64,000 nucleotides of DNA from a virus. Taxonomy: Duplodnaviria; Caudoviricetes. The notes under the pieces were generated by a model that was given only the letters and a program-made list of their open reading frames with translations, was not told the DNA's origin and did not search any database. Each line of letters begins with the position of its first letter. The stretch's first letter is position 1. The stretch is taken from IMG/VR virus record IMGVR_UViG_3300021960_000017, one strand, 5' to 3'. Positions 21,803 through 41,780 of the stretch are shown piece after piece. The translations under genes and the position numbers were made by a program.

Positions 21803-22255
21803 ATGCATGAAATAGAAGACTGGATATTAAACTTTTTGAGTAAACCCAATAGTGCTTTTGCAGGGATGCCTCCTTGTCCTTATGCAAAACGAGCATGGTT
21901 AGATGATAAGGTTATAGTGCATAAAATTTATCCATGGAATATAGAAGACGCTCTGCGTTGGACCTTAACTTACTTTCCACCTGACAAAGATGTAGTTCTG
22001 TTTTGTATGGATCCAAAACTCATTTCTGCAGAGCATCTTGAAAAACTTGCAATAAGTACTGATGACTATATTATTTTAGACGACCATCCTGCTAATCCTG
22101 AAGTTGTAGATGGAGTCTTGCTTAATCAAGGAACATATGCTATACTATTTGTACAGCGTAGGAAAGAATTAGAAAAGGCACGTCAAGAACTTTCCCAAAC
22201 AAATTATTATAAAAATTTTACAGAAGAGTATAAAAACGACGTAGTAAATAGATGA
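21803..22255 (+). CDS. DUF1415-like protein
   Basis: WILNF...PPCPYAKRA resembles the DUF1415 CPFA motif. Confidence 0.45.
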   Translation: MHEIEDWILNFLSKPNSAFAGMPPCPYAKRAWLDDKVIVHKIYPWNIEDALRWTLTYFPPDKDVVLFCMDPKLISAEHLEKLAISTDDYIILDDHPANPEVVDGVLLNQGTYAILFVQRRKELEKARQELSQTNYYKNFTEEYKNDVVNR

Positions 22256-22686
22256 CATTATATGCATATATTGATTTAACAGAAACAAACTATACTCCAC
22301 AACTTGAATATGAAATACTACCAAAGGACACAGATCCTGTTCCATTGTTAGAAATATACAAACAGTATTGTAAGCATAAAGAGTTTGAGAGTGCGTGGCC
22401 TATGTTTGCAGAAGAATTTGCAGCACCTCATAATGACATAATTGCATATAGAGTTAAAGATAAGATTGTAGCGTGGAGTTTGATATACAAGATTGCAAAA
22501 GACACTGTATGGAATATGCAATTTGCTTGGGACTACAAACAACCCAAATTAAAACTAGGCTATAAAAGTATAAGAACAGAGTGTGCCATTTATAGGGAAC
22601 TTGGATATAAAACTATGATGATAGATGATGACGTTCCTTATAAAGCAGAGTTACAAGGCTTTAAAATTTTTGGACCTATAAAATGA
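22252..22686 (+). CDS. aminoacyl-tRNA protein transferase C-terminal domain-like (ATE/Bpt-type GNAT fold)
   Basis: AYRVKDKIVAWS...FAWDYKQPKLKLGYKSIRTECAIYRELGYK resembles ATE_C. Confidence 0.55.
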   Translation: MTLYAYIDLTETNYTPQLEYEILPKDTDPVPLLEIYKQYCKHKEFESAWPMFAEEFAAPHNDIIAYRVKDKIVAWSLIYKIAKDTVWNMQFAWDYKQPKLKLGYKSIRTECAIYRELGYKTMMIDDDVPYKAELQGFKIFGPIK

Positions 22687-23003
22687 ACGTATATACAATA
22701 TACGCAGATCTTACAGAAGGTGCAAATGTAGACGACTTTTTGTCTAGCATCAAAGAGTTCTTTGGAACTCTGGACACACTTGTTGCCTATCGTATCACAC
22801 GAATGAAACTGGGATTTCGCAGCAAAGATATAGGCGAGTGGCGTATAGATATGGAATTCAAAACCATGCAAGACCTAGATGATGCTATGGAACGTGTTTT
22901 ACACAATAGGAAGACAGTGGACAGTCATATACATTTTACACAGTATATAGATGCTGACAGTCTAGATCATTTTTTATACAGGGACTTTCCAGATGAAGTA
23001 TAA
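22683..23003 (+). CDS. DUF6614-like dimeric alpha/beta barrel protein
   Basis: YTIYADL...YRITRMKLGFR...EWRIDMEF..MQDLDDA. Confidence 0.5.
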   Translation: MNVYTIYADLTEGANVDDFLSSIKEFFGTLDTLVAYRITRMKLGFRSKDIGEWRIDMEFKTMQDLDDAMERVLHNRKTVDSHIHFTQYIDADSLDHFLYRDFPDEV

Positions 23004-24198
23004 CATCTGGAACAAATGGGACCCGCTTAAGGTTGTAATGTTAGGCGACAACTGGGGTCCTGAATTTTTCCAAGGTATTAAAGATGATAGGATTCGTAGT
23101 CCATTACAGCAAATAGCAGAGGAAACTCTAGAAGAACTAGCATATTTTGAAAGTGTACTTAAAGACTTTGGCTGTACTGTTCTTAGACCTGTAATAGACA
23201 GAAACGATCGTATCGAGAATTATGTAAGTGAAAACGGAAAAATAAACGGTGGTGTTCCGCGTACCGCATTACAACCAAGAGATAGTCAAATAGTAAGTGG
23301 AAATGTTTTATATAGTGAATTTACTGACAATCCAGGAATAGTACAAGGATTAAAACAATACGGCGAAGTTAACCCTTTTTTAGACCAGCAGGATATTCAA
23401 CTTATTCTTCATAATAATCCTATGGATCAAGATCAATTTGATCGACGTGCTGGCGCCGATTACCCTACATATGAATATTATTTAGAAAATAGAAAAGACA
23501 AAAATAAATTTTTAGATTATGTTTGGGAAGAACTTAATAGTTTTGTTGATTTAGAAGGGATGCCTACTAGTGCAAACTCTTTTTTAATTGGTAAAGACAT
23601 ATATGTAGATTTTAAGTGCCCGCTACCCTATAGAATCTTAGAGAAGATTTTTCCAGATATCCGCATAAATGTTTTATCGCATGGCCATACCCACGCTGAT
23701 GCTTGTTTTCATCCTATTAAACCAGGAGCAATTTTAAGCATTACAGATTTCCAAAACTATGAAGAAACATTTTTTAATTGGGATGTTTGTTATTTAAAGG
23801 GTGAGAGTTGGGATAAAGTTAAGGGGTTTATAAAGTTAAAGAAAGAAAATCTTGGAGCATGGTGGGTTCCTGGTGCTGAAGATAATCCACAGTTTTCTAA
23901 CTTTGTTAATAGTTGGCTAGATGAATGGGTTGGATATGTTGAAGAATCAGTATTTGATGTTAATGTATTAGTGTTAGATGAACATCATGTTTGCGTTAAC
24001 AACATGGAAAATCCGCAACTATTAGAGTTTTTAAAAAAACATAAAATGGAGCCTATTCACATTCCCTGGAAGCATAGATATTTCTGGGACGGTGGATTAC
24101 ACTGTATTACTTTAGATTTATACAGAGAAGGTGTACAGCAAGACTATTTCCCTGATCGTAAACAACCAATAGTCCAAAAGGAATTAGTAAATTGTTAA
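22993..24198 (+). CDS. amidinotransferase family protein 1
   Basis: WNKWDPLKVV, QPRD, HADACF, DVNVLV, GGLHCITL. Confidence 0.85.
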   Translation: MKYNIWNKWDPLKVVMLGDNWGPEFFQGIKDDRIRSPLQQIAEETLEELAYFESVLKDFGCTVLRPVIDRNDRIENYVSENGKINGGVPRTALQPRDSQIVSGNVLYSEFTDNPGIVQGLKQYGEVNPFLDQQDIQLILHNNPMDQDQFDRRAGADYPTYEYYLENRKDKNKFLDYVWEELNSFVDLEGMPTSANSFLIGKDIYVDFKCPLPYRILEKIFPDIRINVLSHGHTHADACFHPIKPGAILSITDFQNYEETFFNWDVCYLKGESWDKVKGFIKLKKENLGAWWVPGAEDNPQFSNFVNSWLDEWVGYVEESVFDVNVLVLDEHHVCVNNMENPQLLEFLKKHKMEPIHIPWKHRYFWDGGLHCITLDLYREGVQQDYFPDRKQPIVQKELVNC

Positions 24199-25358
24199 GA
24201 GAAAAGTATAACATATGGAACAAATGGGATCCGCTTAAAGTTTGTATGTTAGGCAACAATTATGCTCCAGAATTTTTTAACGGCCTTCCAGACAAAGCAG
24301 GCGATCCACTAAAGCGCATATGTGAAGAGACTCTTGAAGATCTTGCAGGATTTAAAAAAATACTACAAGACTTTGGAGTAGAAGTAATACAGCCAGAAAT
24401 GGATCCTAACGAACGCTTTATTGACAATCCTAGCCGGTATCCAAGAGGACCACTACAACCAAGAGATCGTCAAATTGTACTTGCAAACAAATGTTATATA
24501 AGCGGCAATGATCATCCTTCAATTAAAACATGTCTGGAAAATTATGGTGAAGTAACAGATATAAGAGATGTAGATATTCACGTTCCTTATTATATGACTA
24601 GAGAAAGATATGACTTTATTCGTGGAGATGATTACCCAAGTTATGAAGACTTTTTAGAACATAGAAAAAATAAAGATTTTTTTAAAGATTTTGTATGGGA
24701 GGAACTTTTAGAAGTTAAAATAGACCTATCTCTTGACAGTGCTAGTAGTTTTCCTCTTGGTGATAATTTTACTATAGGCATAGGATTTGAGAAAAATATA
24801 TTTTTTTCTCACATTATACAAGAAATGAAATATTATTACACAGTTTTAGATCATTTTCATTGTAAATTAGTGCCTGTAATTGGTCATTCAGATTCAAATT
24901 TCCATCCTATTAAGCCAGGTGCAATATTAAGTTTGCATGATGTCCAAAATTATGAGAAAAATTTTCCTGGCTGGGATGTTTGCTATTTGCCAGAACAGGG
25001 TTGGAGTAAAGTTGAATCTTTTTTAAAACTTAAAAGATTAAACAAGGGCAAATGGTGGGTAGCAGGCGAAGAGGATAATGATGAGTTTACACATTTTGTA
25101 GAAACATGGTTGCAGGATTGGGTTGGATATGTAGAAGAAACAGTGTTTGACGTAAATGTTCTAATGCTAGACGAAAATCATTGTTGTGTTTCTAACCCCA
25201 ATAACGAGCAAGTAAACGCATTTTTTAAAAAACATAAAATCGAACCTGTGCATATTCCTTGGCGACATAGATGGTTTTGGGATGGCGGGTTACATTGTAT
25301 TACATTAGAGTTATACAGAGAAGGTAAACAACAAAATTATTTCAAAGGAGTTTGTTAG
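24192..25358 (+). CDS. amidinotransferase family protein 2 (paralog)
   Basis: WNKWDPLKVC, QPRD, HSDSNF, DVNVLM, GGLHCITL. Confidence 0.85.
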   Translation: MLREKYNIWNKWDPLKVCMLGNNYAPEFFNGLPDKAGDPLKRICEETLEDLAGFKKILQDFGVEVIQPEMDPNERFIDNPSRYPRGPLQPRDRQIVLANKCYISGNDHPSIKTCLENYGEVTDIRDVDIHVPYYMTRERYDFIRGDDYPSYEDFLEHRKNKDFFKDFVWEELLEVKIDLSLDSASSFPLGDNFTIGIGFEKNIFFSHIIQEMKYYYTVLDHFHCKLVPVIGHSDSNFHPIKPGAILSLHDVQNYEKNFPGWDVCYLPEQGWSKVESFLKLKRLNKGKWWVAGEEDNDEFTHFVETWLQDWVGYVEETVFDVNVLMLDENHCCVSNPNNEQVNAFFKKHKIEPVHIPWRHRWFWDGGLHCITLELYREGKQQNYFKGVC

Positions 25359-25631
25359 TTGTTAACACTATACACAAAAAATTTATGCCCTTATTGCGAT
25401 ATGGCTAAAACATATCTACTTGCTTATGAAATTCCCTTTACAGAAGTAAACATTGAAGAAGATACTGAAGCACGAGAGTTTGTATTAAGCAAAGGCCATC
25501 GCACAGTGCCACAGATATACCGAGACGGAGAATTATTTGTTGAGGGCGGCGCTGAAGGCTTGATTAAAGTAGGTCATGAAACTATCAAAGAGCGTTTAGG
25601 TGATTTAAATCTAGGCGGCCTAAGTCTCTGA
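25359..25631 (+). CDS. glutaredoxin
   Basis: CPYC active site, TVPQI, GG; TTG start. Confidence 0.92.
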   Translation: MLTLYTKNLCPYCDMAKTYLLAYEIPFTEVNIEEDTEAREFVLSKGHRTVPQIYRDGELFVEGGAEGLIKVGHETIKERLGDLNLGGLSL

Positions 25632-25668
25632 ATAATAGTAGCAGTTAATTGTACGGATAAATATTAGC

Positions 25669-25953
25669 ATGGCAAGACCTGTAGTAAGAATCGGTGACAG
25701 AAATAGTGCTGGCGGCGTAGCAGTTAGTCCAGTGCGTAATGTGCATGCTAATTTTAGACCTTTTGCAAGGTTTATGAGTAGTGTAACACCTCACCCCCCA
25801 TGTCCTAGAGTTCCAATCCACTGTGGCGCAAAAGCAGCATTGCCAGGCAGTAGAACAGTTCGTGCTGGTGGCAGACCTGTTGTTAGACGTGGAGATGTAG
25901 ACACTTGTGGACACCCTAGAGCATCAGGTTCTAGAAACGTCTTGTGTGGATAA
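25669..25953 (+). CDS. PAAR-like spike tip protein
   Basis: VVRIGD...VTPHPPC..H...GRPVVRRGDVDTCGH..ASGSRNV. Confidence 0.85.
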   Translation: MARPVVRIGDRNSAGGVAVSPVRNVHANFRPFARFMSSVTPHPPCPRVPIHCGAKAALPGSRTVRAGGRPVVRRGDVDTCGHPRASGSRNVLCG

Positions 25954-25956
25954 TTA

Positions 25957-27858
25957 ATGGCAACTATTAAAGCAACTATCACTAGTCTTGGTCTTAATGC
26001 ACTGGGTGGTGCAGTAAATGGTCAGGGTTTAAATAACCTAGGTAAAATTTTAAGTCAGCCTATGTCTAACCTTGGTGGATTTGGCGGTCAGATGGATGCC
26101 CAGGCTAAAATTGCAAATATAATTAAAACAGATTACGATACTCCAGCATTATTAAATGCTGGTGGTTTTAATCCATTAGTTTACCTTAGCAATGCATTAA
26201 CTGGTGTAGCAGATGAAGTAGGCAGCGCAACTAGTGATGGTCGTGGTGCTATTTCCGGATCACTAGGATCAGGTTTTCAAGCTCTAGATGGATCAGGTAT
26301 AGTAGATGCAATTAGTATACACACAGAGTACCTTAAAGGAAGTTATGGTGCTAATAGTATTATGCAGTGTTTTGTTGGTGTAGAAGCATTTTGCTTTATC
26401 AGTAAAGAAATGTACCAAACACTCGAAGGCGGTCTAGCAGCTCGTTTTGGTAGCGCATTTGCTGCGTTAAACAGTAGTTTACCAGCAAGTGAAACATTAT
26501 CAGCAGTAGATAGTACATTTTTAGCAAATAATAGTAACAGTGAAGTAGAGGAAATATTAGGTGGCGAATATGCCTTTACCAATTTTCTTGGTGTTAATAT
26601 AAACAACATCACAGACGCAATAACAAATGGTTTTAGTAATTTTATTACTGGTAATGTAAAAACAACTTTAGCACAACTTGCAGTTGATTTTACCAACCTT
26701 GGTAATGCGTATGATCTTACAGACATAGACAACTTTGGAAATCCCGGACAGATAGTAGACAGATTAATTAGTGTGGGTGCTGGTGATATTACGGGTGTAA
26801 TAGATGCTATGCAGGATATTGGTGGAAATCAATTACTTGCAAATGTTGGTAATTTATCCAGTAGCCAGTTTAACAGTCAATTAACAGATGCATTAAGTTT
26901 AATTACCAACTCTGAGATGATTGCAATAGCGCAACAAGCATTAGGTAGTAATGTTCCTAATTTGACTAGTTTGGCTGACTTAACTGATATAAGGAAAGTA
27001 TTACCAACGAGTTTTGATAATATTAGTCCTAATACTTTTACTCAACTAGTTGTTGAACTTAAAAATTTAAATATTGGAAATTTACAAACACCGCAACAAC
27101 TTGGTACATTACTCGGACGATTCGATTTTCCTGTAAGTTTGCCTACAATAGAAAATTCAACAGTATTAATTGACAATGACGCCGCTGCAAATATTAGAAC
27201 TAAGTTTTTAAATAAAAACTTTAAAGACATGAAAGTAAGTGATGCAATAGGGTCACTTGCGGGTGTTGGTATAAGAAACCCAATTACTAGGTTTACTAAT
27301 GCTATGACAGAAATGGCTAACGCTGGTGCATTTACTGCATTAAATGCTTTATATACTCGTCTTAATGCAGGGTTAAATGGAGATTATAATACAGGCGCTG
27401 TATATGGTGTAGATACTATTGATGATCCGGTAACCAGTATAAGTTATAATGACATGGATGCGTTTGTTAATGCTACACTTTCCCTTATTGGCGCAGAGAT
27501 AACCAGCATTGCGAGCACGGCTGCTTACAGTGATGCTTTTAATAGAGCCCGTGATGCAATTACAGAAATACAGCAAAAAATTTACGATGAAAGCATTACA
27601 TATATTCCTATGATGGATTTGCATTTAAATGATAGAAATAATGATCCTGTAAATGTATATGGTTTTGCGACAAGCATGGAGTCAAGAGTAGAAGACCCTG
27701 ATGCTTTAGATGTACTAAAAGGATTAGCAGAGGCGGCTAAATTACAGAATGATAAGTTTGGTAGCTATTGGGACGCATTTATAAGCGAAACCGTTAATAG
27801 AAACGCTGTTCAAACGCATTCAATAGACTGGATTGCAGAAGATAAAATAGAAATTTAA
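25957..27858 (+). CDS. putative tail/baseplate protein
   Basis: 633 aa A/G/N/S-rich, follows PAAR. Confidence 0.5.
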   Translation: MATIKATITSLGLNALGGAVNGQGLNNLGKILSQPMSNLGGFGGQMDAQAKIANIIKTDYDTPALLNAGGFNPLVYLSNALTGVADEVGSATSDGRGAISGSLGSGFQALDGSGIVDAISIHTEYLKGSYGANSIMQCFVGVEAFCFISKEMYQTLEGGLAARFGSAFAALNSSLPASETLSAVDSTFLANNSNSEVEEILGGEYAFTNFLGVNINNITDAITNGFSNFITGNVKTTLAQLAVDFTNLGNAYDLTDIDNFGNPGQIVDRLISVGAGDITGVIDAMQDIGGNQLLANVGNLSSSQFNSQLTDALSLITNSEMIAIAQQALGSNVPNLTSLADLTDIRKVLPTSFDNISPNTFTQLVVELKNLNIGNLQTPQQLGTLLGRFDFPVSLPTIENSTVLIDNDAAANIRTKFLNKNFKDMKVSDAIGSLAGVGIRNPITRFTNAMTEMANAGAFTALNALYTRLNAGLNGDYNTGAVYGVDTIDDPVTSISYNDMDAFVNATLSLIGAEITSIASTAAYSDAFNRARDAITEIQQKIYDESITYIPMMDLHLNDRNNDPVNVYGFATSMESRVEDPDALDVLKGLAEAAKLQNDKFGSYWDAFISETVNRNAVQTHSIDWIAEDKIEI

Positions 27859-27890
27859 CAAATTTTTCCAGTATTACTTACATAAATAAA

Positions 27891-28170
27891 CACTGTAACG
27901 TCGAAGGGCGTTGAAAAACGTAATGGACATGGGGGCAGTACCCATCGTCTCCACCATAAGCACATGGCATTTGTAGTGTGTTTATGTGGGGACGAACCAG
28001 GATCGACATGCGTGGAGTATACAACTGGAGTTATCGGTAGGCGTGACCGTAAATCAGCAAAACAAAGTAAATGCAAACGATAATTTTGCATCTGAGGATT
28101 TTGCCCTAGCGGCATAATACCTATGGGCGTACAGGGCGCCTGGAAACAGAAGGGACTTAGGTCCCACCTG
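27891..28170 (+). ncRNA. ssrA: circularly permuted (two-piece) tmRNA, alphaproteobacterial type
   Basis: 3' acceptor piece GGACATGGGGGCAGTACCCATCGTCTCCACCA ends at 27956; hairpin spacer; 5' piece GGGGACGAACCAGGATCGAC starts at 27988; tag frame 28073-28117 ANDNFASEDFALAA*; TAAATA at 27883; 5' boundary and 3' end approximate. Confidence 0.93.
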
Positions 28171-28195
28171 CATTCTTCAGAATAAGGAGTTTAAT

Positions 28196-29137
28196 ATGAA
28201 GAAGCTAATAGTTGCTGCCGCTGCGGTAGCATGTTTAACAACACCTGCGATAGCAGAAGAAAAGGCTGCAAGTCCTATTGATAACATGAACATCAAGACA
28301 TTCGGCCAAGTTCGTGCATATGCACAGGTAGATTCACGTGACAATGTTGATGCAGAAGTAACTTCTGATACAACTAGATTTGGCTTTACAGCTAATGGTC
28401 AGGCAGGTGCAGTTGGTCTATTCGGTGAATTAAGTGCAAATGTTAATGCCAATGACGGCAACGCACTTACAACCCGCTTTGGTTATGTTGGTGCTTCACT
28501 ACCAAAACTTGGTAGCATTAGCCTAGGTAGACAGCATAGCGTACAAGACGGTTTCACTGATCAGGCAGACATCTTCATGAGTGCAGGCAACAACAGTATT
28601 CAGCAAATGGGCTTTTACCAAAACAATAGTGTAAAGTACACAAATGAATTTGGTGGTGTCAAAGTTGCAGCACTTGTTGCAATGGCTGATGGCGACGCTG
28701 CAAACAACGACATTGACCGTTACGAAGTAGGCGTTAGTGCTTATGGTTTTGGCGTTTCAATGGGCAAAGAAGAAGATACTGATACATCATACTATGGCAT
28801 TGGTTACGGCGCAACATACGGTAAGCTCACTGTTGGTGCAACTTACAGCATCAAAGACGTAAACGATGGTGGTGGTTTTGGCGATATTATCCTGTACAAC
28901 AGTGACAAGACTACTGCGGTTACCCGTGGTGCAGAAGTTGCTGTAGGTTTCGCTATGACAGACAAGATCACAATCAACGGTGGTTACAATGTTACAGACG
29001 CTGACGGTGACGAAGGTAATGCTATTGGTGAAGTAGTATACGGCCTTGGTTCAAACGCTGTAGCATTTGCTAGTGTTGAATACGATATTGATGCAAGCGA
29101 GTCAATCACTCGTGCAGGTCTCAATATTAAATTCTAA
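28196..29137 (+). CDS. Gram-negative porin
   Basis: Signal peptide, FGQVR...TTRFGF, TRFGYVG...LGSISLGRQ, terminal LNIKF; AAGGAG RBS. Confidence 0.85.
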   Translation: MKKLIVAAAAVACLTTPAIAEEKAASPIDNMNIKTFGQVRAYAQVDSRDNVDAEVTSDTTRFGFTANGQAGAVGLFGELSANVNANDGNALTTRFGYVGASLPKLGSISLGRQHSVQDGFTDQADIFMSAGNNSIQQMGFYQNNSVKYTNEFGGVKVAALVAMADGDAANNDIDRYEVGVSAYGFGVSMGKEEDTDTSYYGIGYGATYGKLTVGATYSIKDVNDGGGFGDIILYNSDKTTAVTRGAEVAVGFAMTDKITINGGYNVTDADGDEGNAIGEVVYGLGSNAVAFASVEYDIDASESITRAGLNIKF

Positions 29138-29161
29138 TAATAACATAAGATGTTATATAAT

Positions 29162-29196
29162 AGAGGGGAGAGTAAAATCTCCCCTCTTCTTTTTTT
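29162..29196 (+). terminator. intrinsic terminator
   Basis: AGAGGGGAGA-GTAAAA-TCTCCCCTCT plus T-run. Confidence 0.85.
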
Positions 29197-29238
29197 GCCT
29201 GCTATAAATATGATATCTACAGGTAGGTACACACATAC

Positions 29239-29472
29239 ATGAAAAAAATCTTTATCTTGATGATAGGGTTTTCTCTATCAGGCTGTGCCGTGCCAGGTGC
29301 AATTGAACTTGCTAGCACTGTAGGCAGCTGGGCTGCTGATGGGCTAGTGCAGGCTGAAACAGGAAAAAACATACCTGATAAATTAGTAAGTGATCTAGTA
29401 GGTAAAGATTGTACACTAAAAAATATTTTTAAGAAAAAGTTAGATATTTGTAAAGAAATCGAAGAGGAATAG
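29239..29472 (+). CDS. small lipoprotein
   Basis: Lipobox LSGC after a hydrophobic stretch. Confidence 0.65.
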   Translation: MKKIFILMIGFSLSGCAVPGAIELASTVGSWAADGLVQAETGKNIPDKLVSDLVGKDCTLKNIFKKKLDICKEIEEE

Positions 29473-29475
29473 CTA

Positions 29476-29676
29476 ATGGCTAAGAAGAATAAAAACGACA
29501 AAGTACTAATGATTCCAGAAGGCGAGACTCGCGCCAATGCAAGTTTTCATTTTGTATATCCTAAAACAATAGGTGAAATTAGAAAAGACAAGAAGTTGCG
29601 TATGCGTAAATACCATCCTGGTAAGCGTGAGCATGTTTGGTTTGTAGAAACCAGAATGCCAAACCATAGTAGATAA
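29476..29676 (+). CDS. rpmG: 50S ribosomal protein bL33-like
   Basis: KVLMIPEG...KLRMRKYHPGKREHVWFVE matches the L33 KLELKKYDP..RKHV.F.E pattern. Confidence 0.75.
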   Translation: MAKKNKNDKVLMIPEGETRANASFHFVYPKTIGEIRKDKKLRMRKYHPGKREHVWFVETRMPNHSR

Positions 29677-29709
29677 GCCTATAAATAAAACATACCAGGA
29701 GATATCAAA

Positions 29710-29874
29710 ATGGCAAAAGGTGCAAAATCTATTGGTTCTAGCAAAGGCGTAAAACTAACCCTAAACAGAACTGGTACAAAAAAGCGTACAAGTATTGGTC
29801 AGAGCAACAATACAAAACCCAAAAATAAACATGCACGGCAGGACTTCAAAGCATATCGAGGACAAGGCAAATAA
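29710..29874 (+). CDS. small basic protein ending YRGQGK (not in ORF track)
   Basis: 54 aa, AGGAG RBS, TAAATA promoter upstream. Confidence 0.65.
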   Translation: MAKGAKSIGSSKGVKLTLNRTGTKKRTSIGQSNNTKPKNKHARQDFKAYRGQGK

Positions 29875-29899
29875 ATACTCCTGAAGAGGAGTATCGATT

Positions 29900-30347: not shown

Positions 30348-30375
30348 TTGACAAGCGTAAAATAACTGCTATAAT
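30348..30375 (+). promoter_or_regulatory. sigma70-like promoter
   Basis: TTGACA-N16-TATAAT. Confidence 0.75.
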
Positions 30376-33387: not shown

Positions 33388-33470
33388 AAGGTAAGGTTCT
33401 GTGACTTTTGACTTTAGTGTCGATGTGCGGAATCATAGTGTAAGCGAGACGGCGGGGGCTGTACACTAGC
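33388..33470 (+). ncRNA. candidate structured element (two hairpins; loop GAGACGGCGGGG)
   Basis: TAGTGTA/TACACTA outer stem plus AGC/GCT inner stem; similar element at 58.2 kb. Confidence 0.4.
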
Positions 33471-33483
33471 ATGAGGAGATAAA

Positions 33484-34455
33484 ATGCGTATACTAGTTAC
33501 AGGTGGCATGGGTTTAATTGGCCACAATGTTGTTAAAAAATTATTAGACAGAGGTCACAAAGTATTAATTGTTGACACGATGACAAACTATGGATTCATT
33601 CCCAAAGACGAAATGAATCATCTGTTTGCAGAGCGTAGCAAAAAGATTGTAGAACAAGTCCCGCTTATCATGCTGGATATTGTGGACGATGGATTAGGCG
33701 TTCATTTCAACAGTTTTAAACCAGAACTAGTAATGCATTTGGCCAGTTTCCCAAGGCAAAAAGTTGTTAATGCTAACCCACAACTGGGTGCAAAAACAAT
33801 GTGCGAAGGACTACTTAATTTACTTGAACTCAGCGTTGCACACGGCGTAGAAAAGTTCATGTATGTAAGTTCAAGTATGGTGTATGGTGACTTTAACCAT
33901 AGTATTTCAGAAGATGAACCCTGCAATCCACAGGGACAGTATGGCATTATGAAGTACATGGGCGAAAAACTTGTAAAGGATTATGAGCGTAAAGGACACT
34001 TTAAGACACTGGTTATTCGCCCAAGTGCTGTATATGGTCCACTGGATGTTGAGGACCGTGTGATCAGCAAGTTTATACTTACAGCAATGCGTGGTGGTAC
34101 TCTTAATGTAAATGGAGAACATGAGCGTTTAGACTTTACCTATGTTGACGACACTGCTGAAGGTATGGTACAAGCAGTTACATCAGACATAACCTGGGGC
34201 AATACCTATAACATTACCAAGGGAGCAGACCATACTCTACTTGACGCTGCTAAACTTGCTATTAAAATTGTTGGCAAGGGCGATATTAGGGTGCGTCAAA
34301 AGGATGCAGACTTCCCAAGCCGTGCAGGACTTGACATTAGCAGGGCAGTAGCCGACTTTGGTTATGATCCTAAAGTCAACATAGAGACCGGATTCCAACA
34401 CTATTATGAATGGTTCTCAGAAGATGAATACTGGCAGGAAAGGTTGAAGCAATGA
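33484..34455 (+). CDS. NAD-dependent epimerase/dehydratase
   Basis: LVTGGMGLIG, SSSMVYG, YGIMK (YxxxK), RPSAVYGP. Confidence 0.92.
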   Translation: MRILVTGGMGLIGHNVVKKLLDRGHKVLIVDTMTNYGFIPKDEMNHLFAERSKKIVEQVPLIMLDIVDDGLGVHFNSFKPELVMHLASFPRQKVVNANPQLGAKTMCEGLLNLLELSVAHGVEKFMYVSSSMVYGDFNHSISEDEPCNPQGQYGIMKYMGEKLVKDYERKGHFKTLVIRPSAVYGPLDVEDRVISKFILTAMRGGTLNVNGEHERLDFTYVDDTAEGMVQAVTSDITWGNTYNITKGADHTLLDAAKLAIKIVGKGDIRVRQKDADFPSRAGLDISRAVADFGYDPKVNIETGFQHYYEWFSEDEYWQERLKQ

Positions 34456-34724
34456 TTACACCCGTTGACATTCAAGCAGGTAACAGTTACAGTTGCACAT
34501 TTACAGTAAATATTCCGCTGGATCGTTTTGGGCGTCCAGGCGGAATGTACAGCGCGGCAGACCTTCCTATACAACGATATGGTGACTATACAAGCACAGG
34601 CGATATTGTTGCTCGTGATTTAAATACCAAATTATTTGAAGTTCGTGATCATAAGTCAAAAAGTACATTTGTTGTAAAGTTTAATGATACGCAAGACATA
34701 AAAGAGAATGTTGGGCAGGCGTGA
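34452..34724 (+). CDS. hypothetical protein
   Basis: ATGA-coupled ORF. Confidence 0.55.
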   Translation: MITPVDIQAGNSYSCTFTVNIPLDRFGRPGGMYSAADLPIQRYGDYTSTGDIVARDLNTKLFEVRDHKSKSTFVVKFNDTQDIKENVGQA

Positions 34725-35133
34725 CCATAGGATAATGGAGTTTGTTCGTAGGCAGGCCATTGATAACAATGGTATGTCACGGGCTAAACTGGCAGCAGCA
34801 GTTGTTGTCAAAGGTAAAATTATCAGCATAGGCATAAACCAGAAAAAGAGTCATCCCTTTCAGCGTCAGTTTGCAAAGAACAAGGAAGCAATTTTTCTAC
34901 ATGCTGAAATAATGGCTATCAAGAATAGTCTTAATCATTTAACTCCAGCAGAGTTACGACAGGCTACCCTGTACATCTACCGTGTAAAGCGTCCCACAGA
35001 TAAAAGCAAGCACTGGGTAAATGGTATTGCCAAACCCTGCAAAGGATGCATGGGTGCTATTGCAGAGTTTGATTTTAAGCGAGTAGTATACACTACAGAT
35101 AATTTGCACGAGTTTGCAGTTATCGATAACTAA
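34708..35133 (+). CDS. cytidine/dCMP deaminase-like zinc protein
   Basis: LHAEIMAI and KPCKGC motifs. Confidence 0.8.
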   Translation: MLGRRDHRIMEFVRRQAIDNNGMSRAKLAAAVVVKGKIISIGINQKKSHPFQRQFAKNKEAIFLHAEIMAIKNSLNHLTPAELRQATLYIYRVKRPTDKSKHWVNGIAKPCKGCMGAIAEFDFKRVVYTTDNLHEFAVIDN

Positions 35134-35141
35134 ATACTAGT

Positions 35142-35435
35142 ATGGACACTAGTGAACTAATTAAAAAACTTTTAGGTATTATCGACGAGTTTCAGCAGGT
35201 AAATCAGCCTGCAGACCCCAATCATTTCCGTCAGATAGAGGAATTAACTGACGATGATCGCAGTCCCTATCAGCCTGCAAATGCTCCTAATGAGCAATAC
35301 GCTGGTATTGAAAGCGTAACAACTCATGCAGGTGGAGGCGTAAATGGACCCAAACACGCCGCAGATTTGCGTACAGACAGTCCAAGTCTATACCATTATC
35401 TAACACAAGTGGAGCATGATCGTGGCCAACATTAA
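35142..35435 (+). CDS. hypothetical late protein
   Basis: After TAAATA; GGGVNGPKHAADLR. Confidence 0.55.
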   Translation: MDTSELIKKLLGIIDEFQQVNQPADPNHFRQIEELTDDDRSPYQPANAPNEQYAGIESVTTHAGGGVNGPKHAADLRTDSPSLYHYLTQVEHDRGQH

Positions 35436-36627
35436 CATAACATACAAAGGCCTAACAGGTATTAGAAGTGCCCTGACTATTGACGATGGACAAACAATGG
35501 CACAACTTCGTACTGCTATTATTGCTGACGAAGTATTGAGTAGTGCCTATTATGGTCGTGTAAGTTTGCACAAAAATGGATTTGTAATTGATAGCACAGA
35601 TAACGCTGCCACCACACTTGCTAGTGCCGGAATGGTAAGCGGCGATATGGCAATAGTATCTACTGCTAAACAAACAACCAAAGAGGCACAACAGGTTATG
35701 AGTTTGGCTATCGCTCAACTAAAGCGTAGAGGCGGCAACGCTGCAGATGATACAGCACCCTATTTTAGAACTTACAATACCTACGACATTAATGCTCTAA
35801 GTCTAAAGTATGCTGGTAATGTTCCTGGTAACAACGCAGAAACTTATGATCCACTACAGCCTAGACGTCCCTGGCTAACTGGTGGTGCTGGTGCAGCACC
35901 TGAAACAGTTGAAGAAGCAGTTCCACAGGCTACACTAGATAGACTACAAACTAACTACGATGCTAGTACAAACACTTATATAAAACCACCCAGTCTTTCA
36001 AGTGGCGGTACTATTACACAGTGGACGGACCAATCTGTGTTTGCACACAACCTTAACAGCGGTGGCAGTGCTAGACCAACATGGCATAGTAATGTAAAGA
36101 ATAGCAAAGGTGTACTTCGTTTCGATGGTACAAATGACTGCCTAAATATTAATCCAGTAGCATGGTTGAACAGCGTACCACAAGCAACATTCTTTATTGT
36201 ATGTAAGCCCACTGCAACAACAGGTGACAGTGTAATGGGCAGTGATCAGGGTGACCTCCGTGTGTATAGTGACACCGGTGCGTGGAAAGTTGGCATGGCT
36301 GGTGCTACAGCAGGCCAAGCAAGTGGCACAGATGCTAATATAAGTGCTGGCAGTTGGTATTATCTTACTGTTGTTTATGATGGTACAGCAGGCACAAACG
36401 CTGACAGATTAAAATTTAAAGTAAATGGTACAGCAATTACATTAAGTTACACTGGTACAGTTGGTGCAACAACTAGTGCCACTAACACAGAATTTGCTGT
36501 TGGTTGTTATAATAGCACAGAGTTCTTTGCAGGTGACATCAGTGAGGTGCTAGTTTTTGATACCCTTCTAATTACTCCTGAAATTAATGCTATTGAGAGT
36601 TACTTGGCTGCTAGATGGGCTATATAA
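35422..36627 (+). CDS. virion protein with LamG/concanavalin-like domain
   Basis: GTG start with GGAG RBS; WTDQS...LRFDGTND...WYYLTVVYDG...FAGDISEVLVF. Confidence 0.7.
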   Translation: MANINITYKGLTGIRSALTIDDGQTMAQLRTAIIADEVLSSAYYGRVSLHKNGFVIDSTDNAATTLASAGMVSGDMAIVSTAKQTTKEAQQVMSLAIAQLKRRGGNAADDTAPYFRTYNTYDINALSLKYAGNVPGNNAETYDPLQPRRPWLTGGAGAAPETVEEAVPQATLDRLQTNYDASTNTYIKPPSLSSGGTITQWTDQSVFAHNLNSGGSARPTWHSNVKNSKGVLRFDGTNDCLNINPVAWLNSVPQATFFIVCKPTATTGDSVMGSDQGDLRVYSDTGAWKVGMAGATAGQASGTDANISAGSWYYLTVVYDGTAGTNADRLKFKVNGTAITLSYTGTVGATTSATNTEFAVGCYNSTEFFAGDISEVLVFDTLLITPEINAIESYLAARWAI

Positions 36628-36630
36628 TCC

Positions 36631-38199
36631 ATGGCAGTAAACTCTAGAAATAACACTACCCCTTATGCACATCCACAGGAAACAAACCTTCTCAATGTGC
36701 ATAAAGCCATGCAGTATAATGGTCAGGGCCAGCCTGTACTGAGAACAGGAAGTTTTGGACCAGAAGAAAGAAGTGCATTTGGTGAACCATATGCAATCCC
36801 CCTCACTCCTATATTACAGTTAGATGCACTATACGGATTGCCCAGCACAGAGTTTCAAACCTTTAGTGCAAGCAGTGGTACAGCAACCACAGAACGAGAC
36901 ATGTTCAAAGTCAGCACTGGCACCAGTGTTGGTGGCTATGGAGTTATTCGCAGTAGACGACTAGCACGATACAGACCTGGACAAGGCATGATGGCTAGAT
37001 TTACTGCTAGTTTTACAACGCCGGTTGCTGGAACTACACAACGAGCAGGATTCTTTGCACAGGAACAAGCACTTCAGATTGGTTTTGACGGAACACGATT
37101 TGGCATACTTAGACAAAATGATGGCAAAGCAGAACTGCGTGTGCTTACACTGTCAGCAGGTGCAAGTGGTGCTGGCGAAACAGCAACCATAACTGTAAAC
37201 GGTACAAGTTACACAGTGGCTCTAACAAACAGTAGTATAGAACAAAATGCCGCAGAAATCGCTGCCGCAGGTGCTACAGGTTATGTACTGGATCAAGAAG
37301 CCGGCAGTGTATACTTTTTTGCCGCAAGCAACGGTCCACAGACGGGCACATTTAGTTTTAGTAGCACAGGCAACGCCGCCGGCACATTCAGTCAACAACA
37401 AGCAGGCGTGGCAGATACCAACAACTGGATATATCAAGAAGATTTTAACATTGATAAACTGGATGGCACTGGATCTAGTGGCGTCAATATAGACTTTACT
37501 AAACTTAACATTTACCAAATCAGTTTCCGCTGGTTAGGAGCAGGCGAGATGCGATTTAGCATTGAAAATCCCGACACCGGCGATATGATGTTTTTCCATC
37601 ACATACACTACAGCAATCGCAACACTGATGTTAGTTTAGACAACCCTAGCTTTAGATTGGGATATATTGCGGCTAACCTATCAGCCAGTACTATTCCAGA
37701 TCTTGTGGTGCGTGGTGGCAGTATGGCAGCATTTAACGAAGGTGTAGTAAAAGATGTAGCATACTCTAGTTCAATCTCATCCAGTAAAAGTTCACTGGGC
37801 AGTAATACCTGGCATCACATATTGACCATTAGAAATCCATTGGTATTCAAAAACAAAGTTAATCTAAGAAATGTGATCCTTGAAAGAATAAGCATGGCGT
37901 TTCAGGGCAATGATCCACTCGAAGTAGCACTAATATTGGATGGCACACCCAGTACAACTTTATTCTATAATGGCGTAGACCTAACTGATACTATAAGCAG
38001 TTACTACAGTACCACTGACGCAACATTTACAAACCCTATTACAAGATTTAGAAGTATTGTTAACATCAACGGTAGCATTAATCTAGATATTAAAATATTG
38101 AGCATGGTTATACCTCCGCAGTGCGGAATAAGTCTAGCAGTTAGAAGTACCCAGACTATTAGTAAAGTAACGGCTGCACTAGTCTGGAACGAAATCTAA
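36631..38199 (+). CDS. putative virion structural protein
   Basis: 522 aa beta-rich; RYRPGQG, WLGAG motifs. Confidence 0.55.
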   Translation: MAVNSRNNTTPYAHPQETNLLNVHKAMQYNGQGQPVLRTGSFGPEERSAFGEPYAIPLTPILQLDALYGLPSTEFQTFSASSGTATTERDMFKVSTGTSVGGYGVIRSRRLARYRPGQGMMARFTASFTTPVAGTTQRAGFFAQEQALQIGFDGTRFGILRQNDGKAELRVLTLSAGASGAGETATITVNGTSYTVALTNSSIEQNAAEIAAAGATGYVLDQEAGSVYFFAASNGPQTGTFSFSSTGNAAGTFSQQQAGVADTNNWIYQEDFNIDKLDGTGSSGVNIDFTKLNIYQISFRWLGAGEMRFSIENPDTGDMMFFHHIHYSNRNTDVSLDNPSFRLGYIAANLSASTIPDLVVRGGSMAAFNEGVVKDVAYSSSISSSKSSLGSNTWHHILTIRNPLVFKNKVNLRNVILERISMAFQGNDPLEVALILDGTPSTTLFYNGVDLTDTISSYYSTTDATFTNPITRFRSIVNINGSINLDIKILSMVIPPQCGISLAVRSTQTISKVTAALVWNEI

Positions 38200-38201
38200 A
38201 C

Positions 38202-38231
38202 TTGACAAGCAAGTAAAAAAGGTAGTATAAT
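38202..38231 (+). promoter_or_regulatory. sigma70-like promoter
   Basis: TTGACA-N18-TATAAT. Confidence 0.65.
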
Positions 38232-38237
38232 AAAGGT

Positions 38238-39992
38238 ATGTTTTTAGGGATTCTTACATTACTGGTTGCTCTGTTCATTTCAGGTATTGCAGCCTATTAT
38301 AGTATTATTGGTTTGACTGCTATTTTTGCAGCAGCATTTATACCCATTGTTCTTATGGGTAGTGTGTTAGAGGTTGGTAAGATTTTAACAACTGTTTGGC
38401 TGCATCAAAACTGGCAACGAGCTCCCAGAATTATCCGCGGTTATTTGACTATAGCAGTTATAGTACTCATGTTCATTACAAGCATGGGTGTGTTTGGCTT
38501 TTTAAGTAAGAGTCATATTGAACAGGCAAGTGTTGGTGTAGAACAGCGAGCCCTTAGTGATAGTATTGATGAAAAGATTATTCGTAGCCAAGCAAAAATA
38601 GAACGCTGGGCTGAGGAAATAAAACGTCTTAACACAGGTGGTGATAGCACTCGTATTGATGGTTTGATTGCCAGAGAGCAACAACGCATCAAGGATGCAA
38701 ATGAAAGACTTGTACCACAGATTGATGCTGAAAATGCAAAGATACCTGGCCTAAGACAGCAAGCACAAAGAGAAATTGGTCAACAAGAAAAGCGTTTAGT
38801 TGATGCTCAAAAACGAGCAGAGGCAAGCATTAAAGTTGCACAGGATGAACTTACACGATTAGACGCAGATGTTGAAGCATATACTAAACAGGGCACAACT
38901 GGGTCCGGCGGATTTTTTGGTGGTAAAACTGATAATGTTGCCAAGGGTGCTGAACTACGCAAAAACCAAAAGCCAGAGCGTGATAAACTACAAGCAGACA
39001 TAGATGCAGCAAAAGCAAACGAACTTGCTATTGCAAGTAAGGTGCAGGCCGAAATAAGAGACATTAACAGTCGTTTGGCTACTAGCATTAAAGCAGTTGA
39101 AGCAAGAATTGTAGATATACGCAAGAGTATTGATCCTACCGTTAAACAGGCTAATGATAACATTGCTCGCTATACACTCGAAGCAGGCAATGCTAACAAA
39201 GGTGTAGATACTCGTATCTCTGAAATTGAAAAACTAATAGAAGCAGAGCAGCCTATTATTGATAAACTACGTGAAGAAAAGTTAGTATTTGAGAAAAAGT
39301 ACAGACAGTTTGAAGCAGAGGTTGGCCCAGTTAAATATATTGCTGAACTTATATATGGCACTACCACAGACAAAACGCTGTTAGAAGAAGCAGTGCGTTG
39401 GGTGATAATTATTATAGTAGCAGTTTTTGATCCACTTGCTGTCTGTCTTGTTCTTGCTGGTACAATGACCATAGGCTGGGCCAGACAAGAACGCAAGAAA
39501 AACATTAAAAAAAAGATAGTAAGAGTTGACGACCCTAGATTAGAGGAATTAGAAATGAAACTAGACCAACATAACGACATTCTCAGTGAACTTGAGAGAC
39601 TACTAGATGATAATCTAGGCAAAATGGATCCTGCAGAGTATGCAAAACTCAAAGCAGAATATGACAGCATGGTTGCAGAGCGTGACACACTTGCAGCAGC
39701 ACTTGAAGAAGCAAAAGCAGAGTCAGATGGTCTAGTTGACAAAGTAGTTGCTACTGAAGCAGAGCGTGATGCACTAGCAAAAAGATTAGATGATGTTGCA
39801 GCAGGTAGCAGTGCATTTGAAAAGCGTATTGAAGAATTACTAAAGCGTATAGCAGATCTAGAAGCAGAAGTTGAACGCCGTGATGCAGTGGTGCTTAAAA
39901 TGGCAGAGAAGTATCAGTTAGTTGAAAAAGACAGTTTTGGTGATGATTTAGTTGCAGCCGCTAACGGGCAGCAGACAGAAGCAAAAAACTAA
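38238..39992 (+). CDS. membrane-anchored coiled-coil protein
   Basis: Three N-terminal TM helices, long coiled coil, internal TM (IIIIVAVFDPLAVCLVL), second coiled coil. Confidence 0.75.
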   Translation: MFLGILTLLVALFISGIAAYYSIIGLTAIFAAAFIPIVLMGSVLEVGKILTTVWLHQNWQRAPRIIRGYLTIAVIVLMFITSMGVFGFLSKSHIEQASVGVEQRALSDSIDEKIIRSQAKIERWAEEIKRLNTGGDSTRIDGLIAREQQRIKDANERLVPQIDAENAKIPGLRQQAQREIGQQEKRLVDAQKRAEASIKVAQDELTRLDADVEAYTKQGTTGSGGFFGGKTDNVAKGAELRKNQKPERDKLQADIDAAKANELAIASKVQAEIRDINSRLATSIKAVEARIVDIRKSIDPTVKQANDNIARYTLEAGNANKGVDTRISEIEKLIEAEQPIIDKLREEKLVFEKKYRQFEAEVGPVKYIAELIYGTTTDKTLLEEAVRWVIIIIVAVFDPLAVCLVLAGTMTIGWARQERKKNIKKKIVRVDDPRLEELEMKLDQHNDILSELERLLDDNLGKMDPAEYAKLKAEYDSMVAERDTLAAALEEAKAESDGLVDKVVATEAERDALAKRLDDVAAGSSAFEKRIEELLKRIADLEAEVERRDAVVLKMAEKYQLVEKDSFGDDLVAAANGQQTEAKN

Positions 39993-40026
39993 TTCAGGTC
40001 TCTGTTGCAGAAACCATCAGGGACCT
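39983..40026 (+). promoter_or_regulatory. candidate -1 programmed ribosomal frameshift signal
   Basis: A AAA AAC heptamer in frame just before TAA; 6-nt spacer; 9-bp stem AGGTCTCTG/CAGGGACCT; -1 frame open to 40306. Confidence 0.7.
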
Positions 40027-40042
40027 TGACTTACCAGCAGGT

Positions 40043-40306
40043 GTGAATATAGACTTTGGTACTGTTTTTACTCAGTATCCAGACAAAGGCGATTTGTTTA
40101 TTAGAGTAGATGTATTACCAAACAGGTTGTTTAGATACACTGGCGATAAGTGGATAGAAATACCCAAAACACGCACTACTAGTTATTTGGGCAATGAAGA
40201 ATATATCAAGCATATTTTAAATGATATAAGTGCAGGAAAAATAAAACTTGAAGATCTTACTGAAGATGAACAGGAAGAAATACAAAAGTTTTTAGGCAAT
40301 GAGTAA
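40043..40306 (+). CDS. hypothetical domain, likely the C-terminal extension of 38238 via frameshift
   Basis: Weak GTG start; frame open from 39965; FGTVF..YPDKGDLFIRVD.LPNRLF. Confidence 0.6.
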   Translation: MNIDFGTVFTQYPDKGDLFIRVDVLPNRLFRYTGDKWIEIPKTRTTSYLGNEEYIKHILNDISAGKIKLEDLTEDEQEEIQKFLGNE

Positions 40307-40661
40307 ATTTACGATTGTAACATCGCCGGATTATTATTTTATGGACCAACCAAGTATTCTTAGTTACGGGTTGGATATCAATAATGAAAGAGTTTGCAAC
40401 TACATAAATGATGTAGATGTAGATGTAACAGTATACTTGGGAACACCAAGTTCAGATTTAAACTGGTTAATCAATGTTTCTAGGAGCGTTGATTATATAC
40501 TGTTAAATACTAATGTAGATATGTTAGTTACTGGTTTGTTAATTGACAAACCCAACACATACTACTATAATAATATCATTAACTTTGATATTTTAAATAA
40601 ACAACAAATCGAAGATCCAGTTGCATTTTTGATTAGTTGGCTGAACAAACTAGAGGTATAA
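40299..40661 (+). CDS. hypothetical protein
   Basis: 120 aa in operon. Confidence 0.55.
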   Translation: MSKFTIVTSPDYYFMDQPSILSYGLDINNERVCNYINDVDVDVTVYLGTPSSDLNWLINVSRSVDYILLNTNVDMLVTGLLIDKPNTYYYNNIINFDILNKQQIEDPVAFLISWLNKLEV

Positions 40662-40883
40662 ATGCCAGATAGACAACCACGTGGTCTTACAGTACAAGTC
40701 CACAATAATAATGTTAACAAGGCGTGGCGTCGCCTTAAGAAAATGATCCAAGAAGATGGATTATTTCAAGAATTAAAAGAGCGTGAACATTTCACAAAGC
40801 CTAGCGCAAAACGCAGGAAAGAACGTGATATGGCTCGTAAACGCTGGCTTAAGAAAAAGCGTGAAATAGAAATGAACTGGTAA
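40662..40883 (+). CDS. rpsU: 30S ribosomal protein bS21
   Basis: VQVHNNNVNKAWRRLKK...ELKEREHFTKPSAKRR. Confidence 0.9.
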   Translation: MPDRQPRGLTVQVHNNNVNKAWRRLKKMIQEDGLFQELKEREHFTKPSAKRRKERDMARKRWLKKKREIEMNW

Positions 40884-40889
40884 AAAAAG

Positions 40890-40917
40890 TTGACATTTCT
40901 TGTATAGAGTGTATAAT
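40890..40917 (+). promoter_or_regulatory. sigma70-like promoter (TAAATA also at 40925)
   Basis: TTGACA-N16-TATAAT. Confidence 0.7.
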
Positions 40918-40935
40918 ACACAGATAAATAAATTT

Positions 40936-41000
40936 AGAAGATGCCGTGAATTCGGGTCTTCTTTAAAATGTAAATTCTTGCTTAATAAAGGAGAAATGCA
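40936..41000 (+). promoter_or_regulatory. ROSE-like RNA thermometer candidate
   Basis: Two hairpins; the second pairs TTCTTGCTT with AAGGAGAA (SD), leaving a bulged G. Confidence 0.55.
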
Positions 41001-41426
41001 ATGAATACTCTTACAACTTTTGACATCCCCACACTGAACAGAAACTTTATCGGCATTGATCGTTTGCTTGATCGTATGCTGGTTAATGGACAAACCCAAG
41101 AAGGGTATCCTCCATACAACGTGGTAAAACTTGACGACGATAACTTTGAAATTGAGCTTGCAGTAGCAGGTTTTGGCGAAAAGGATATTGAAGTCACTGT
41201 ACATAACGGAGTACTTGCTATTGAAGGCAAGACTGCTGAAGCCCAAACAGAACGTACATTCCTCCACAAGGGAATCAGCAGCCGTAAATTCCGTCGTACA
41301 TTTAACCTTGCAGATCATGTAGAGGTTAAAGATGCAAAGGTACGTGATGGCATTCTTAGTATTGCACTAGAACGCCAAGTACCTGAAGAATTAAAACCAC
41401 GCAAAATTTCAGTAAATTTCGTGTAA
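41001..41426 (+). CDS. small heat shock protein Hsp20 (IbpA-like)
   Basis: YPPYNVVK, IELAVAGF, FLHKGISSRKFRRTF, DGILSI. Confidence 0.95.
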   Translation: MNTLTTFDIPTLNRNFIGIDRLLDRMLVNGQTQEGYPPYNVVKLDDDNFEIELAVAGFGEKDIEVTVHNGVLAIEGKTAEAQTERTFLHKGISSRKFRRTFNLADHVEVKDAKVRDGILSIALERQVPEELKPRKISVNFV

Positions 41427-41432
41427 ATATAT

Positions 41433-41464
41433 GTGCGGGGAGAGCAATCTCCCCGCATACTTTC
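41433..41464 (+). terminator. hairpin/terminator
   Basis: GTGCGGGGAGA-GCAA-TCTCCCCGCAT. Confidence 0.7.
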
Positions 41465-41474
41465 GGAGTTTTAT

Positions 41475-41780
41475 ATGTCTGAAAAAACAAACACAAAAAT
41501 TAAGGTTCGTCCTATAATTGAAAAGGAACCGCCTAAAGATTACAAGGTTATTTTTGTAAATGATCAAGTAACTACATTTGAGTTTGTTTGCGATAGTCTA
41601 GTGACTGTTTTTGATTATGATGAGTCAAAAGCACAAAAGAAAACACAAGAAATCCATGCCCAGGGTGCAGGCGTAGTTGCTGTACTTCCTTTTGAAATTG
41701 CAGAACAAAAAGGTGTGGAAGTTTTAGTACAAGCCCGTAATCAGGGCTATCCCTTAGAAGTTAAATTAGAACAAGAATAA
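41475..41780 (+). CDS. clpS: ATP-dependent Clp protease adaptor ClpS
   Basis: PPKDYKVIFVNDQVTTFEFV, EIHAQGAGVV, EIAEQK, YPLEVKLE; ATG at 41475 with GGAG RBS. Confidence 0.9.
   Translation: MSEKTNTKIKVRPIIEKEPPKDYKVIFVNDQVTTFEFVCDSLVTVFDYDESKAQKKTQEIHAQGAGVVAVLPFEIAEQKGVEVLVQARNQGYPLEVKLEQE

Follow-up and report, generated by a model that had tools for sequence, protein, structure and literature searches.

The genes that had suggested a phage-encoded N-degron circuit in an uncultured virus probably represent three independent auxiliary modules that share a 19.5-kb stretch of DNA. The stretch lies in IMG/VR virus record IMGVR_UViG_3300021960_000017 (Duplodnaviria; Caudoviricetes), of which we analyzed 64,000 nucleotides, referred to here as the window. 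An earlier note on the window had proposed that the phage may redirect host protein turnover with its own writer of destabilizing N-termini (an ATE/Bpt-like protein) and its own reader (ClpS), alongside a transfer-messenger RNA (tmRNA) and Hsp20. ClpS (79.8 bits to PF02617), the tmRNA (two Rfam models), and Hsp20 were confirmed, and the ATE/Bpt-like gene appears homologous to ATE_C at the family level but encodes only the C-terminal lobe. Because these genes fall in three separately inherited modules, they do not form a matched writer-reader system. The elements in question, which are separated by approximately 25 unrelated genes, are:

22252-22686, + strand: single-lobe ATE_C-type GNAT protein of 144 amino acids, called ATE-like below (PF04377, fold, and residues)
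27852-28160, + strand: circularly permuted, two-piece tmRNA of the alphaproteobacterial type (Rfam)
28073-28117, + strand: tmRNA tag open reading frame, which reads ANDNFASEDFALAA and then a stop
41001-41426, + strand: Hsp20/IbpA-like small heat-shock gene (PF00011, E 3.5e-20; IbpA-like in NCBIfam)
41475-41780, + strand: ClpS adaptor of 101 amino acids from ATG 41475 (PF02617, E 1.3e-22)

Sequence searches placed the stretch, which has a G+C content of approximately 39% and carries nearly all of its genes on the + strand, among uncultured aquatic T4-like jumbo phages. A megablast of 20 kb against GenBank phages matched at a tRNA alone. Based on CheckV estimates for related IMG/VR contigs, genomes of the lineage are approximately 350 kb. 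Gene linkage was counted in 80 IMG/VR loci encoding a relative of the window ClpS and in the best 80 IMG/VR loci for the ATE-like gene, while residue conservation was scored across 82 phage ClpS sequences from related loci and 29 ATE-like relatives. Clp and tmRNA genes were inventoried in five relatives that are 81-100% complete, with near-complete genomes spanning 300-360 kb.

The ATE-like gene and clpS were both common in one lineage, physically uncoupled, and separable. ClpS lay within 10 kb of the ATE-like gene at 1 of 80 loci (L029), and the ATE-like gene with its two partners (the trio described below) was found within 10 kb of ClpS at none of the 80 ClpS loci. On G013, the contig of L029, ClpS-Hsp20 is within 9 kb of the trio. 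Spacing between the ATE-like gene and clpS was 12-19 kb in the sub-clade of the window (the window, G003, and two short contigs) and 35-126 kb in other sub-clades, and in other relatives the tmRNA was located elsewhere with respect to both genes. G024, a 100% complete genome, encodes ClpS without the ATE-like gene; PA5oct-type phages have Hsp20-ClpS, and tblastn did not detect the ATE-like gene in 50,697 GenBank phage records. Among 60 records bearing the ATE-like gene, mostly fragments, ClpS was present in 7, compared with approximately 10.7 expected from the sum of CheckV completeness values if every genome carried it at a random location, a comparison that is uninformative for co-occurrence. 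Shared descent accounts for the co-residence of the two genes as well as function does.

ClpS looks like a competent N-degron reader, intact in every feature examined. The window protein scores far above the PF02617 cut-off of 23 bits, and E. coli ClpS structures match it at E 2e-12. An Acinetobacter 'phage' ClpS match was set aside, as its clpS-clpA-argC context looks bacterial. Relative to E. coli ClpS, the pocket residues N34, D35, T38, and H66 are retained, D36 is replaced by Q, and the gatekeeper M40 is replaced by F. Across the phage sequences, the pocket is likewise preserved (N in 81/82, D35 in 82/82, T in 82/82, H in 73/82); the D36 position is polar in all 82, and at the M40 position 58 sequences have M and 11 have F. 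Equivalents of E79, E82, and K84, which we take from ClpS-ClpA N-domain structures to be the ClpA contacts, are invariant (82/82).

ClpS can deliver substrates only if its N-terminal extension, with a Pro-Pro junction, is 14 residues or longer (PMC8666677). Counted from ATG 41475, the window ClpS carries a 20-residue extension (MSEKTNTKIKVRPIIEKEPP) that ends in Pro-Pro before the core, and because 20 exceeds 14, its length should suffice for delivery. This ATG is the likely start since it is preceded by a GGAG ribosome-binding site; the alternative, GTG 41433, is at the foot of a hairpin between the two genes:

41434-41457, no strand assigned: GC-rich intergenic hairpin, after the hsp20 stop and before the clpS start (10-bp stem, 7 GC pairs)

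Downstream partners for such a reader were encoded by the relatives. A ClpA-type unfoldase with Clp_N was present in 5/5 near-complete genomes (approximately 740-770 amino acids, and 855 in one open frame), and the copy in G006 matched the full length of TIGR02639 with 902 bits. ClpX and ClpP were also each found in 5/5, and three of these genomes carried an additional ClpP-like gene. On G013, a ClpP gene and a partial match to tmRNA are approximately 0.9 kb apart (57998-59611). None of ClpA, ClpX, or ClpP is encoded within the 64-kb window. Phage-run proteolysis is plausible because the relatives encode all three, and from its predicted gene content the lineage brings an N-degron reader along with unfoldase, peptidase, and holdase proteins and a ribosome-rescue RNA. 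Lineage genomes also encode DnaJ-ClpA and ClpP. In the mechanism that we propose, ClpS most likely docks on the N-domain of ClpA, whether that of the phage or that of the host, and would shift ClpAP from directly recognized substrates, including ssrA-tagged proteins, to aggregates and proteins with N-terminal Leu, Phe, Tyr, or Trp, while the IbpA-like Hsp20 would hold unfolded proteins. This proposal draws on the conserved residues and on known ClpS biochemistry.

A phage ClpS could instead be mainly an inhibitor or decoy that occupies host ClpA, blocks degradation of phage proteins and directly recognized substrates, and delivers nothing. ClpS is known to suppress the ATPase activity of ClpA and its degradation of ssrA substrates (PMC8666677). 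The gene also follows a perfect sigma-70 promoter, which fits early expression, and ClpX has been lost from the block in the sub-clade of the window. However, a pure inhibitor would not need the pocket residues that are conserved over the 82 phage sequences, and the lineage has its own ClpA and ClpP. We consider this function unlikely and favor ClpS as a delivery adaptor.

clpS was linked to genes upstream of it, which in the window include:

40543-40571, + strand: perfect sigma-70 consensus promoter before the bS21 gene (12/12 match)
40662-40883, + strand: ribosomal protein bS21 gene (PF01165, E 8.7e-16)
40890-40917, + strand: perfect sigma-70 consensus promoter before hsp20 (12/12 match)

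Hsp20 was upstream of ClpS on the same strand at 79/80 loci, the remaining locus being cut by a contig end, and directly upstream (within approximately 125 bases) in 74 of the 79. A gene for a coiled-coil membrane protein was upstream at 65/80 loci, bS21 at 58/80, and ClpX, at a distance of 1-4 kb, at 52/80. In the complete 342.6-kb genome G006, the order is ClpX-IF3-bS21-x-x-Hsp20-ClpS. A full IF3 gene (IF3_N and IF3_C) stands between ClpX and bS21 at locus L163 (G006:C1:289500-296500), which places translation-initiation and proteolysis genes in one array. The cultured Pseudomonas phage PA5oct (MK797984) has the matching order ClpX-bS21-x-x-Hsp20-ClpS, with FtsH nearby; its ClpX is 44% identical to the G006 protein, and its bS21, Hsp20, and ClpS are 31-46% identical to those of the window. 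The bS21-Hsp20-ClpS genes of the window are probably a trimmed copy of a conserved ClpX-(IF3)-bS21-Hsp20-ClpS array and are probably expressed early. Since none of the papers searched names both PA5oct and ClpS, the conserved ClpX-bS21-Hsp20-ClpS array appears to be undescribed in them.

Early expression is suggested by the perfect sigma-70 promoters before bS21 and hsp20. A promoter matching at least 11 of 12 positions was present upstream of hsp20 in 37/79 relatives, compared with 7/400 control windows. The window has two further perfect matches to TTGACA-N16-18-TATAAT:

30348-30375, + strand: 12/12 promoter before a SleB-like gene
38202-38231, + strand: 12/12 promoter before the coiled-coil membrane protein gene

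All four (30348, 38202, 40543, and 40890) are probably phage early promoters. The hsp20 leader also contains a hairpin (AGAAGA...TCTTCT followed by T's, approximately 40936-40962), downstream of the promoter and ahead of the ribosome-binding site, that may act as an attenuator or as an element resembling an RNA thermometer; Rfam reported nothing at this position. Directly after clpS is a gene of the GMP reductase/IMPDH family (41817-42887), kept there only in the sub-clade of the window (14/80 loci). Two adjoining S-adenosylmethionine (AdoMet)-decarboxylase-like genes (PF02675) are close to the block at 43222-43960, and this pair suggests polyamine metabolism.

The tmRNA constitutes a second module. 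Rfam detected it with alpha_tmRNA at 27852-28160 on the + strand (112 bits; gathering score, 50) and with tmRNA_permuted at 27895-28117 (120.8 bits). In the Rfam alignment, both the G3:U pair and a CCA end can be seen in the acceptor stem (GGGGACG/CGUCUCC-ACCA). ARAGORN reported no tmRNA in the stretch, a result that was overruled by the high scores of the two Rfam models; tRNA/tmRNA scans alone can miss permuted genes of this kind. An alpha-type tmRNA was found in 5/5 near-complete relatives and SmpB in 0/5, and the phage tmRNA presumably uses host SmpB. Together, the two-piece tmRNA and host SmpB would free stalled ribosomes and append a tag ending in ALAA, routing the tagged proteins mainly to ClpXP. 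The earlier note had listed the tmRNA with the writer and reader as parts of a possible rewiring of proteolysis. Because ClpS inhibits ClpA handling of ssrA-tagged proteins (PMC8666677), the two are not arms of a single ClpA route.

The third module contains the ATE-like gene, which we identify from sequence and structural modeling as the predicted donor/catalytic half of an aminoacyl-tRNA transferase. The window protein scored 20.1 bits against PF04377 (ATE_C), below the cut-off of 25. Homology to ATE is nevertheless supported at the family level, where 18/29 relatives matched ATE_C, the relative in G006 reached 28.6 bits, and family member P0043 matched Kluyveromyces lactis Ate1 (klAte1) at E 6.5e-4 in a search of the whole PDB, aligning to klAte1 residues 237-313. 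A PDB profile search with the family alignment returned nothing at E<=10, and NCBIfam and PHROGs had no match for the ATE-like gene or for its neighbor DUF6614. With the window protein as query, phmmer returned bromodomain matches only, which were dismissed as chance. The family consists of stand-alone proteins of approximately 145 amino acids, with at least 561 copies in IMG/VR and Atlas clusters of thousands of members that are approximately 99% viral.

In the AlphaFold (AF2) model (pLDDT, the model confidence score, 93.6), the ATE-like protein is one GNAT lobe, and its fold matches the second lobe in aminoacyl-tRNA transferases (L-PGS, Z 14.5; MprF, 14.3; FemX, 14.1; human ATE1, 10.8), with plain acetyltransferases at Z 11-12. 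Published mutational data for klAte1 (PMC9351520) were mapped onto the family through the P0043-Ate1 alignment. Phage W93, E110, Y130, and K131, the counterparts of klAte1 W260, E277, Y303, and K304, are retained by 28-29 of the 29 relatives (E110 in 29/29, Y130 and K131 in 28/29); the equivalent of S273 is kept in 24/29. In klAte1, Glu277 is essential in the arginine pocket and Tyr303-Lys304 are catalytic (PMC9351520). At the position of this Glu in the phage family, the bacterial leucyl-transferase Bpt carries Gln. If an aminoacyl-tRNA is used, the donor looks basic (Arg-type) rather than Leu, since the Glu is as in arginyl-transferases. Acidic N-termini are read in klAte1 by Arg80, Tyr25, and Tyr87, and the basic alpha3 helix (Lys112-Lys123) grips the tRNA; both this acceptor pocket and the helix lie before residue 130 (PMC9351520). 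The phage protein lacks the entire N-terminal lobe, with no ATE_N Cys motif, acidic-N-terminus pocket, or alpha3 tRNA helix.

The conserved neighbors of the ATE-like gene, with which it forms a trio and a larger cassette, are:

21803-22255, + strand: 150-amino-acid protein, first gene of the trio, with a possible AglA-like fold (alignment, AF2 model)
22683-23003, + strand: DUF6614 protein, third gene of the trio (PF20319, E 7.2e-15)
22993-24198 and 24192-25358, + strand: two tandem, divergent amidinotransferase-like paralogs (phmmer against the PDB)

The upstream gene adjoins the ATE-like gene at 75/80 loci. In its product, C25 (within the motif PCP[YF]A) and H95 are invariant, and the AF2 model (pLDDT 90.2) matched AglA (9ub3) at Z 6.4 over 143 aligned residues, the only match above noise (Z 5). 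The Pfam matches, DUF6875 for 17/22 relatives and DUF1415 for 2/22, were weak. The thiolate-heme enzyme AglA (YqcI/YcgG type), whose ligand is Cys44, N-hydroxylates the guanidine of a compound made by AglC from Arg-tRNA (PMC12866846), and C25 falls at the position corresponding to this Cys44. DUF6614, whose Atlas clusters are 94-100% viral, was present at 70/80 ATE-like loci, in most of them directly downstream of the ATE-like gene. The amidinotransferase-like genes were found at 22/80 loci, in most adjoining the trio; the paralogs keep the catalytic Cys in a C-terminal GGLHC, and their nearest PDB matches were HsvA (1.6e-4), SxtG (2.6e-4), and AGAT (1.6e-3). The T4 late-promoter word TATAAATA was not enriched, and none occurs before the trio.

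Because the trio is often beside amidinotransferase-like genes, the cassette points to arginine or guanidino small-molecule chemistry. With AglC and AglA as precedent, the ATE-like GNAT may transfer a basic amino acid to an amine other than a protein, as part of a pathway for guanidino modification. This is the least certain step of our interpretation, and we put it forward tentatively.

A single-lobe GNAT might also aminoacylate another macromolecule, such as a lipid (as do aminoacyl-phosphatidylglycerol synthases), a cell-wall precursor (FemX), or a nucleotide or DNA base, in which case the trio would serve surface or nucleic-acid modification. The highest-scoring folds, L-PGS, MprF, and FemX (Z 14.1-14.5), are in line with this, as is the position of the cassette directly after nrdA-nrdB and before a glutaredoxin in the sub-clade of the window. 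However, the ATE-like protein is soluble, with one lobe and no membrane domain, ordinary acetyl-CoA GNATs score nearly as well, and the nrdAB adjacency is restricted to the closest relatives. Modification of a macromolecule thus has a low probability in our assessment.

The writer-reader model of the earlier note has the ATE-like protein writing destabilizing N-termini on host proteins for phage ClpS to deliver to ClpAP, with an acceptor lobe supplied by dimerization or a neighboring protein. Consistent with it, the family has kept both its donor pocket and the catalytic Tyr-Lys pair, and ClpS is intact. The expected co-occurrence was seen in part, as both genes occur in 4/5 near-complete relatives and are 12-19 kb apart in four genomes of the window's sub-clade, but they are unlinked, with the spacing of 35-126 kb in other sub-clades and ClpS alone in G024 and PA5oct-type phages. 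The reader half of the claim stands by its residues; the writer half does not, as the gene lacks ATE_N, sits in a different cassette, and has an Arg-type donor pocket. The missing lobe is the one that in klAte1 holds the acidic-N-terminus residues and basic tRNA helix (PMC9351520), and ATE_N (PF04376) was absent from all five near-complete relatives (0/5). The conserved partners of the trio are not proteolysis genes, and the donor predicted from the invariant Glu does not suit the reader. In bacteria, ClpS reads N-terminal Leu, Phe, Tyr, or Trp, and N-terminal Arg or Lys must first undergo conversion by Aat; to our knowledge, N-terminal Arg is not itself a ClpS ligand in bacteria. Aat (Leu_Phe_trans, PF03588) was found in 0/5 near-complete relatives. 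Collectively, these findings make the model improbable. More improbable still is that the single ATE_C lobe, with its heme-like and DUF6614 partners standing in for the missing half, puts Arg or N-hydroxylated Arg from tRNA on protein N-termini during infection as a phage-specific mark read by ClpA and the phage's own ClpS, whose pocket has Q and F, which if true would constitute a self-contained viral degron system.

Several observations weigh against three independent modules as we describe them. ClpS and the ATE-like gene co-reside in 4/5 genomes that are at least 81% complete, and distribution alone may leave room for a functional tie. ClpA is inferred for the window's own genome from its relatives, and in G003, the nearest large relative, ClpA was seen and ClpX and ClpP were not in the 57% of the genome covered. 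For the guanidino pathway, the 150-amino-acid protein has no Pfam YqcI/YcgG match and its fold match to AglA is modest, and the Atlas returned no structure for the DUF6614 partner.

Phage ClpS, Hsp20, and tmRNA genes are individually known; the present analysis adds their organization. ClpS stays joined to Hsp20, bS21, and usually ClpX in an arrangement common to uncultured 350-kb aquatic phages and the cultured PA5oct, and this provides an experimentally accessible way to ask why jumbo phages carry their own Clp adaptor. The annotation arginine-tRNA-protein transferase, carried by a very large family of viral proteins, appears to cover only the donor half of such an enzyme. Because of this, and because the cassette points to arginine-derived small-molecule chemistry, such genes should not be read as N-degron writers.

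Compared with known systems, the ATE-like protein shares equivalents of the ATE_C core residues W260, S273, E277, Y303, and K304 with eukaryotic Ate1 and bacterial Bpt (PF04376 and PF04377; klAte1 7WFX, PMC9351520), at 144 amino acids versus 240-500 for these enzymes. Its cassette resembles AglC and AglA of argolaphos biosynthesis (PMC12866846) in combining a predicted aminoacyl-tRNA-dependent transferase with a small, Cys-bearing, heme-fold-like protein in an arginine chemistry setting; the likeness to AglC is by described activity, family membership aside, and that to AglA is by a fold match of just Z 6.4. Two-piece tmRNAs were previously described in pelagimyophages and the OM43 phage Melnitz (PMC9004378), and like those marine T4-like phages, the window encodes a permuted ssrA of the alphaproteobacterial type. 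Unlike theirs, it is in another genomic position, and Rfam reported no glutamine riboswitch here.

The phage ClpS pocket, ClpA contacts, and Pro-Pro junction, together with the ClpA (Clp_N) and ClpP of relatives, resemble the bacterial Leu/N-degron pathway (ClpS-ClpAP), which differs in its writer, as neither Aat nor a two-lobe Bpt was found here. Phage-encoded Clp sets that include ClpS were previously described in jumbo phages (PMC7824862, PMC6102473). PA5oct and Agrobacterium phage Atu_ph07 (PMC6102473) likewise encode ClpS, ClpX, ClpA, and ClpP (surveyed in PMC7824862), although in contrast to PA5oct-type sets, ClpX is gone from the block in the sub-clade of the window. Finally, bacterial clpS is paired with clpA, whereas phage clpS is paired with hsp20 and bS21.

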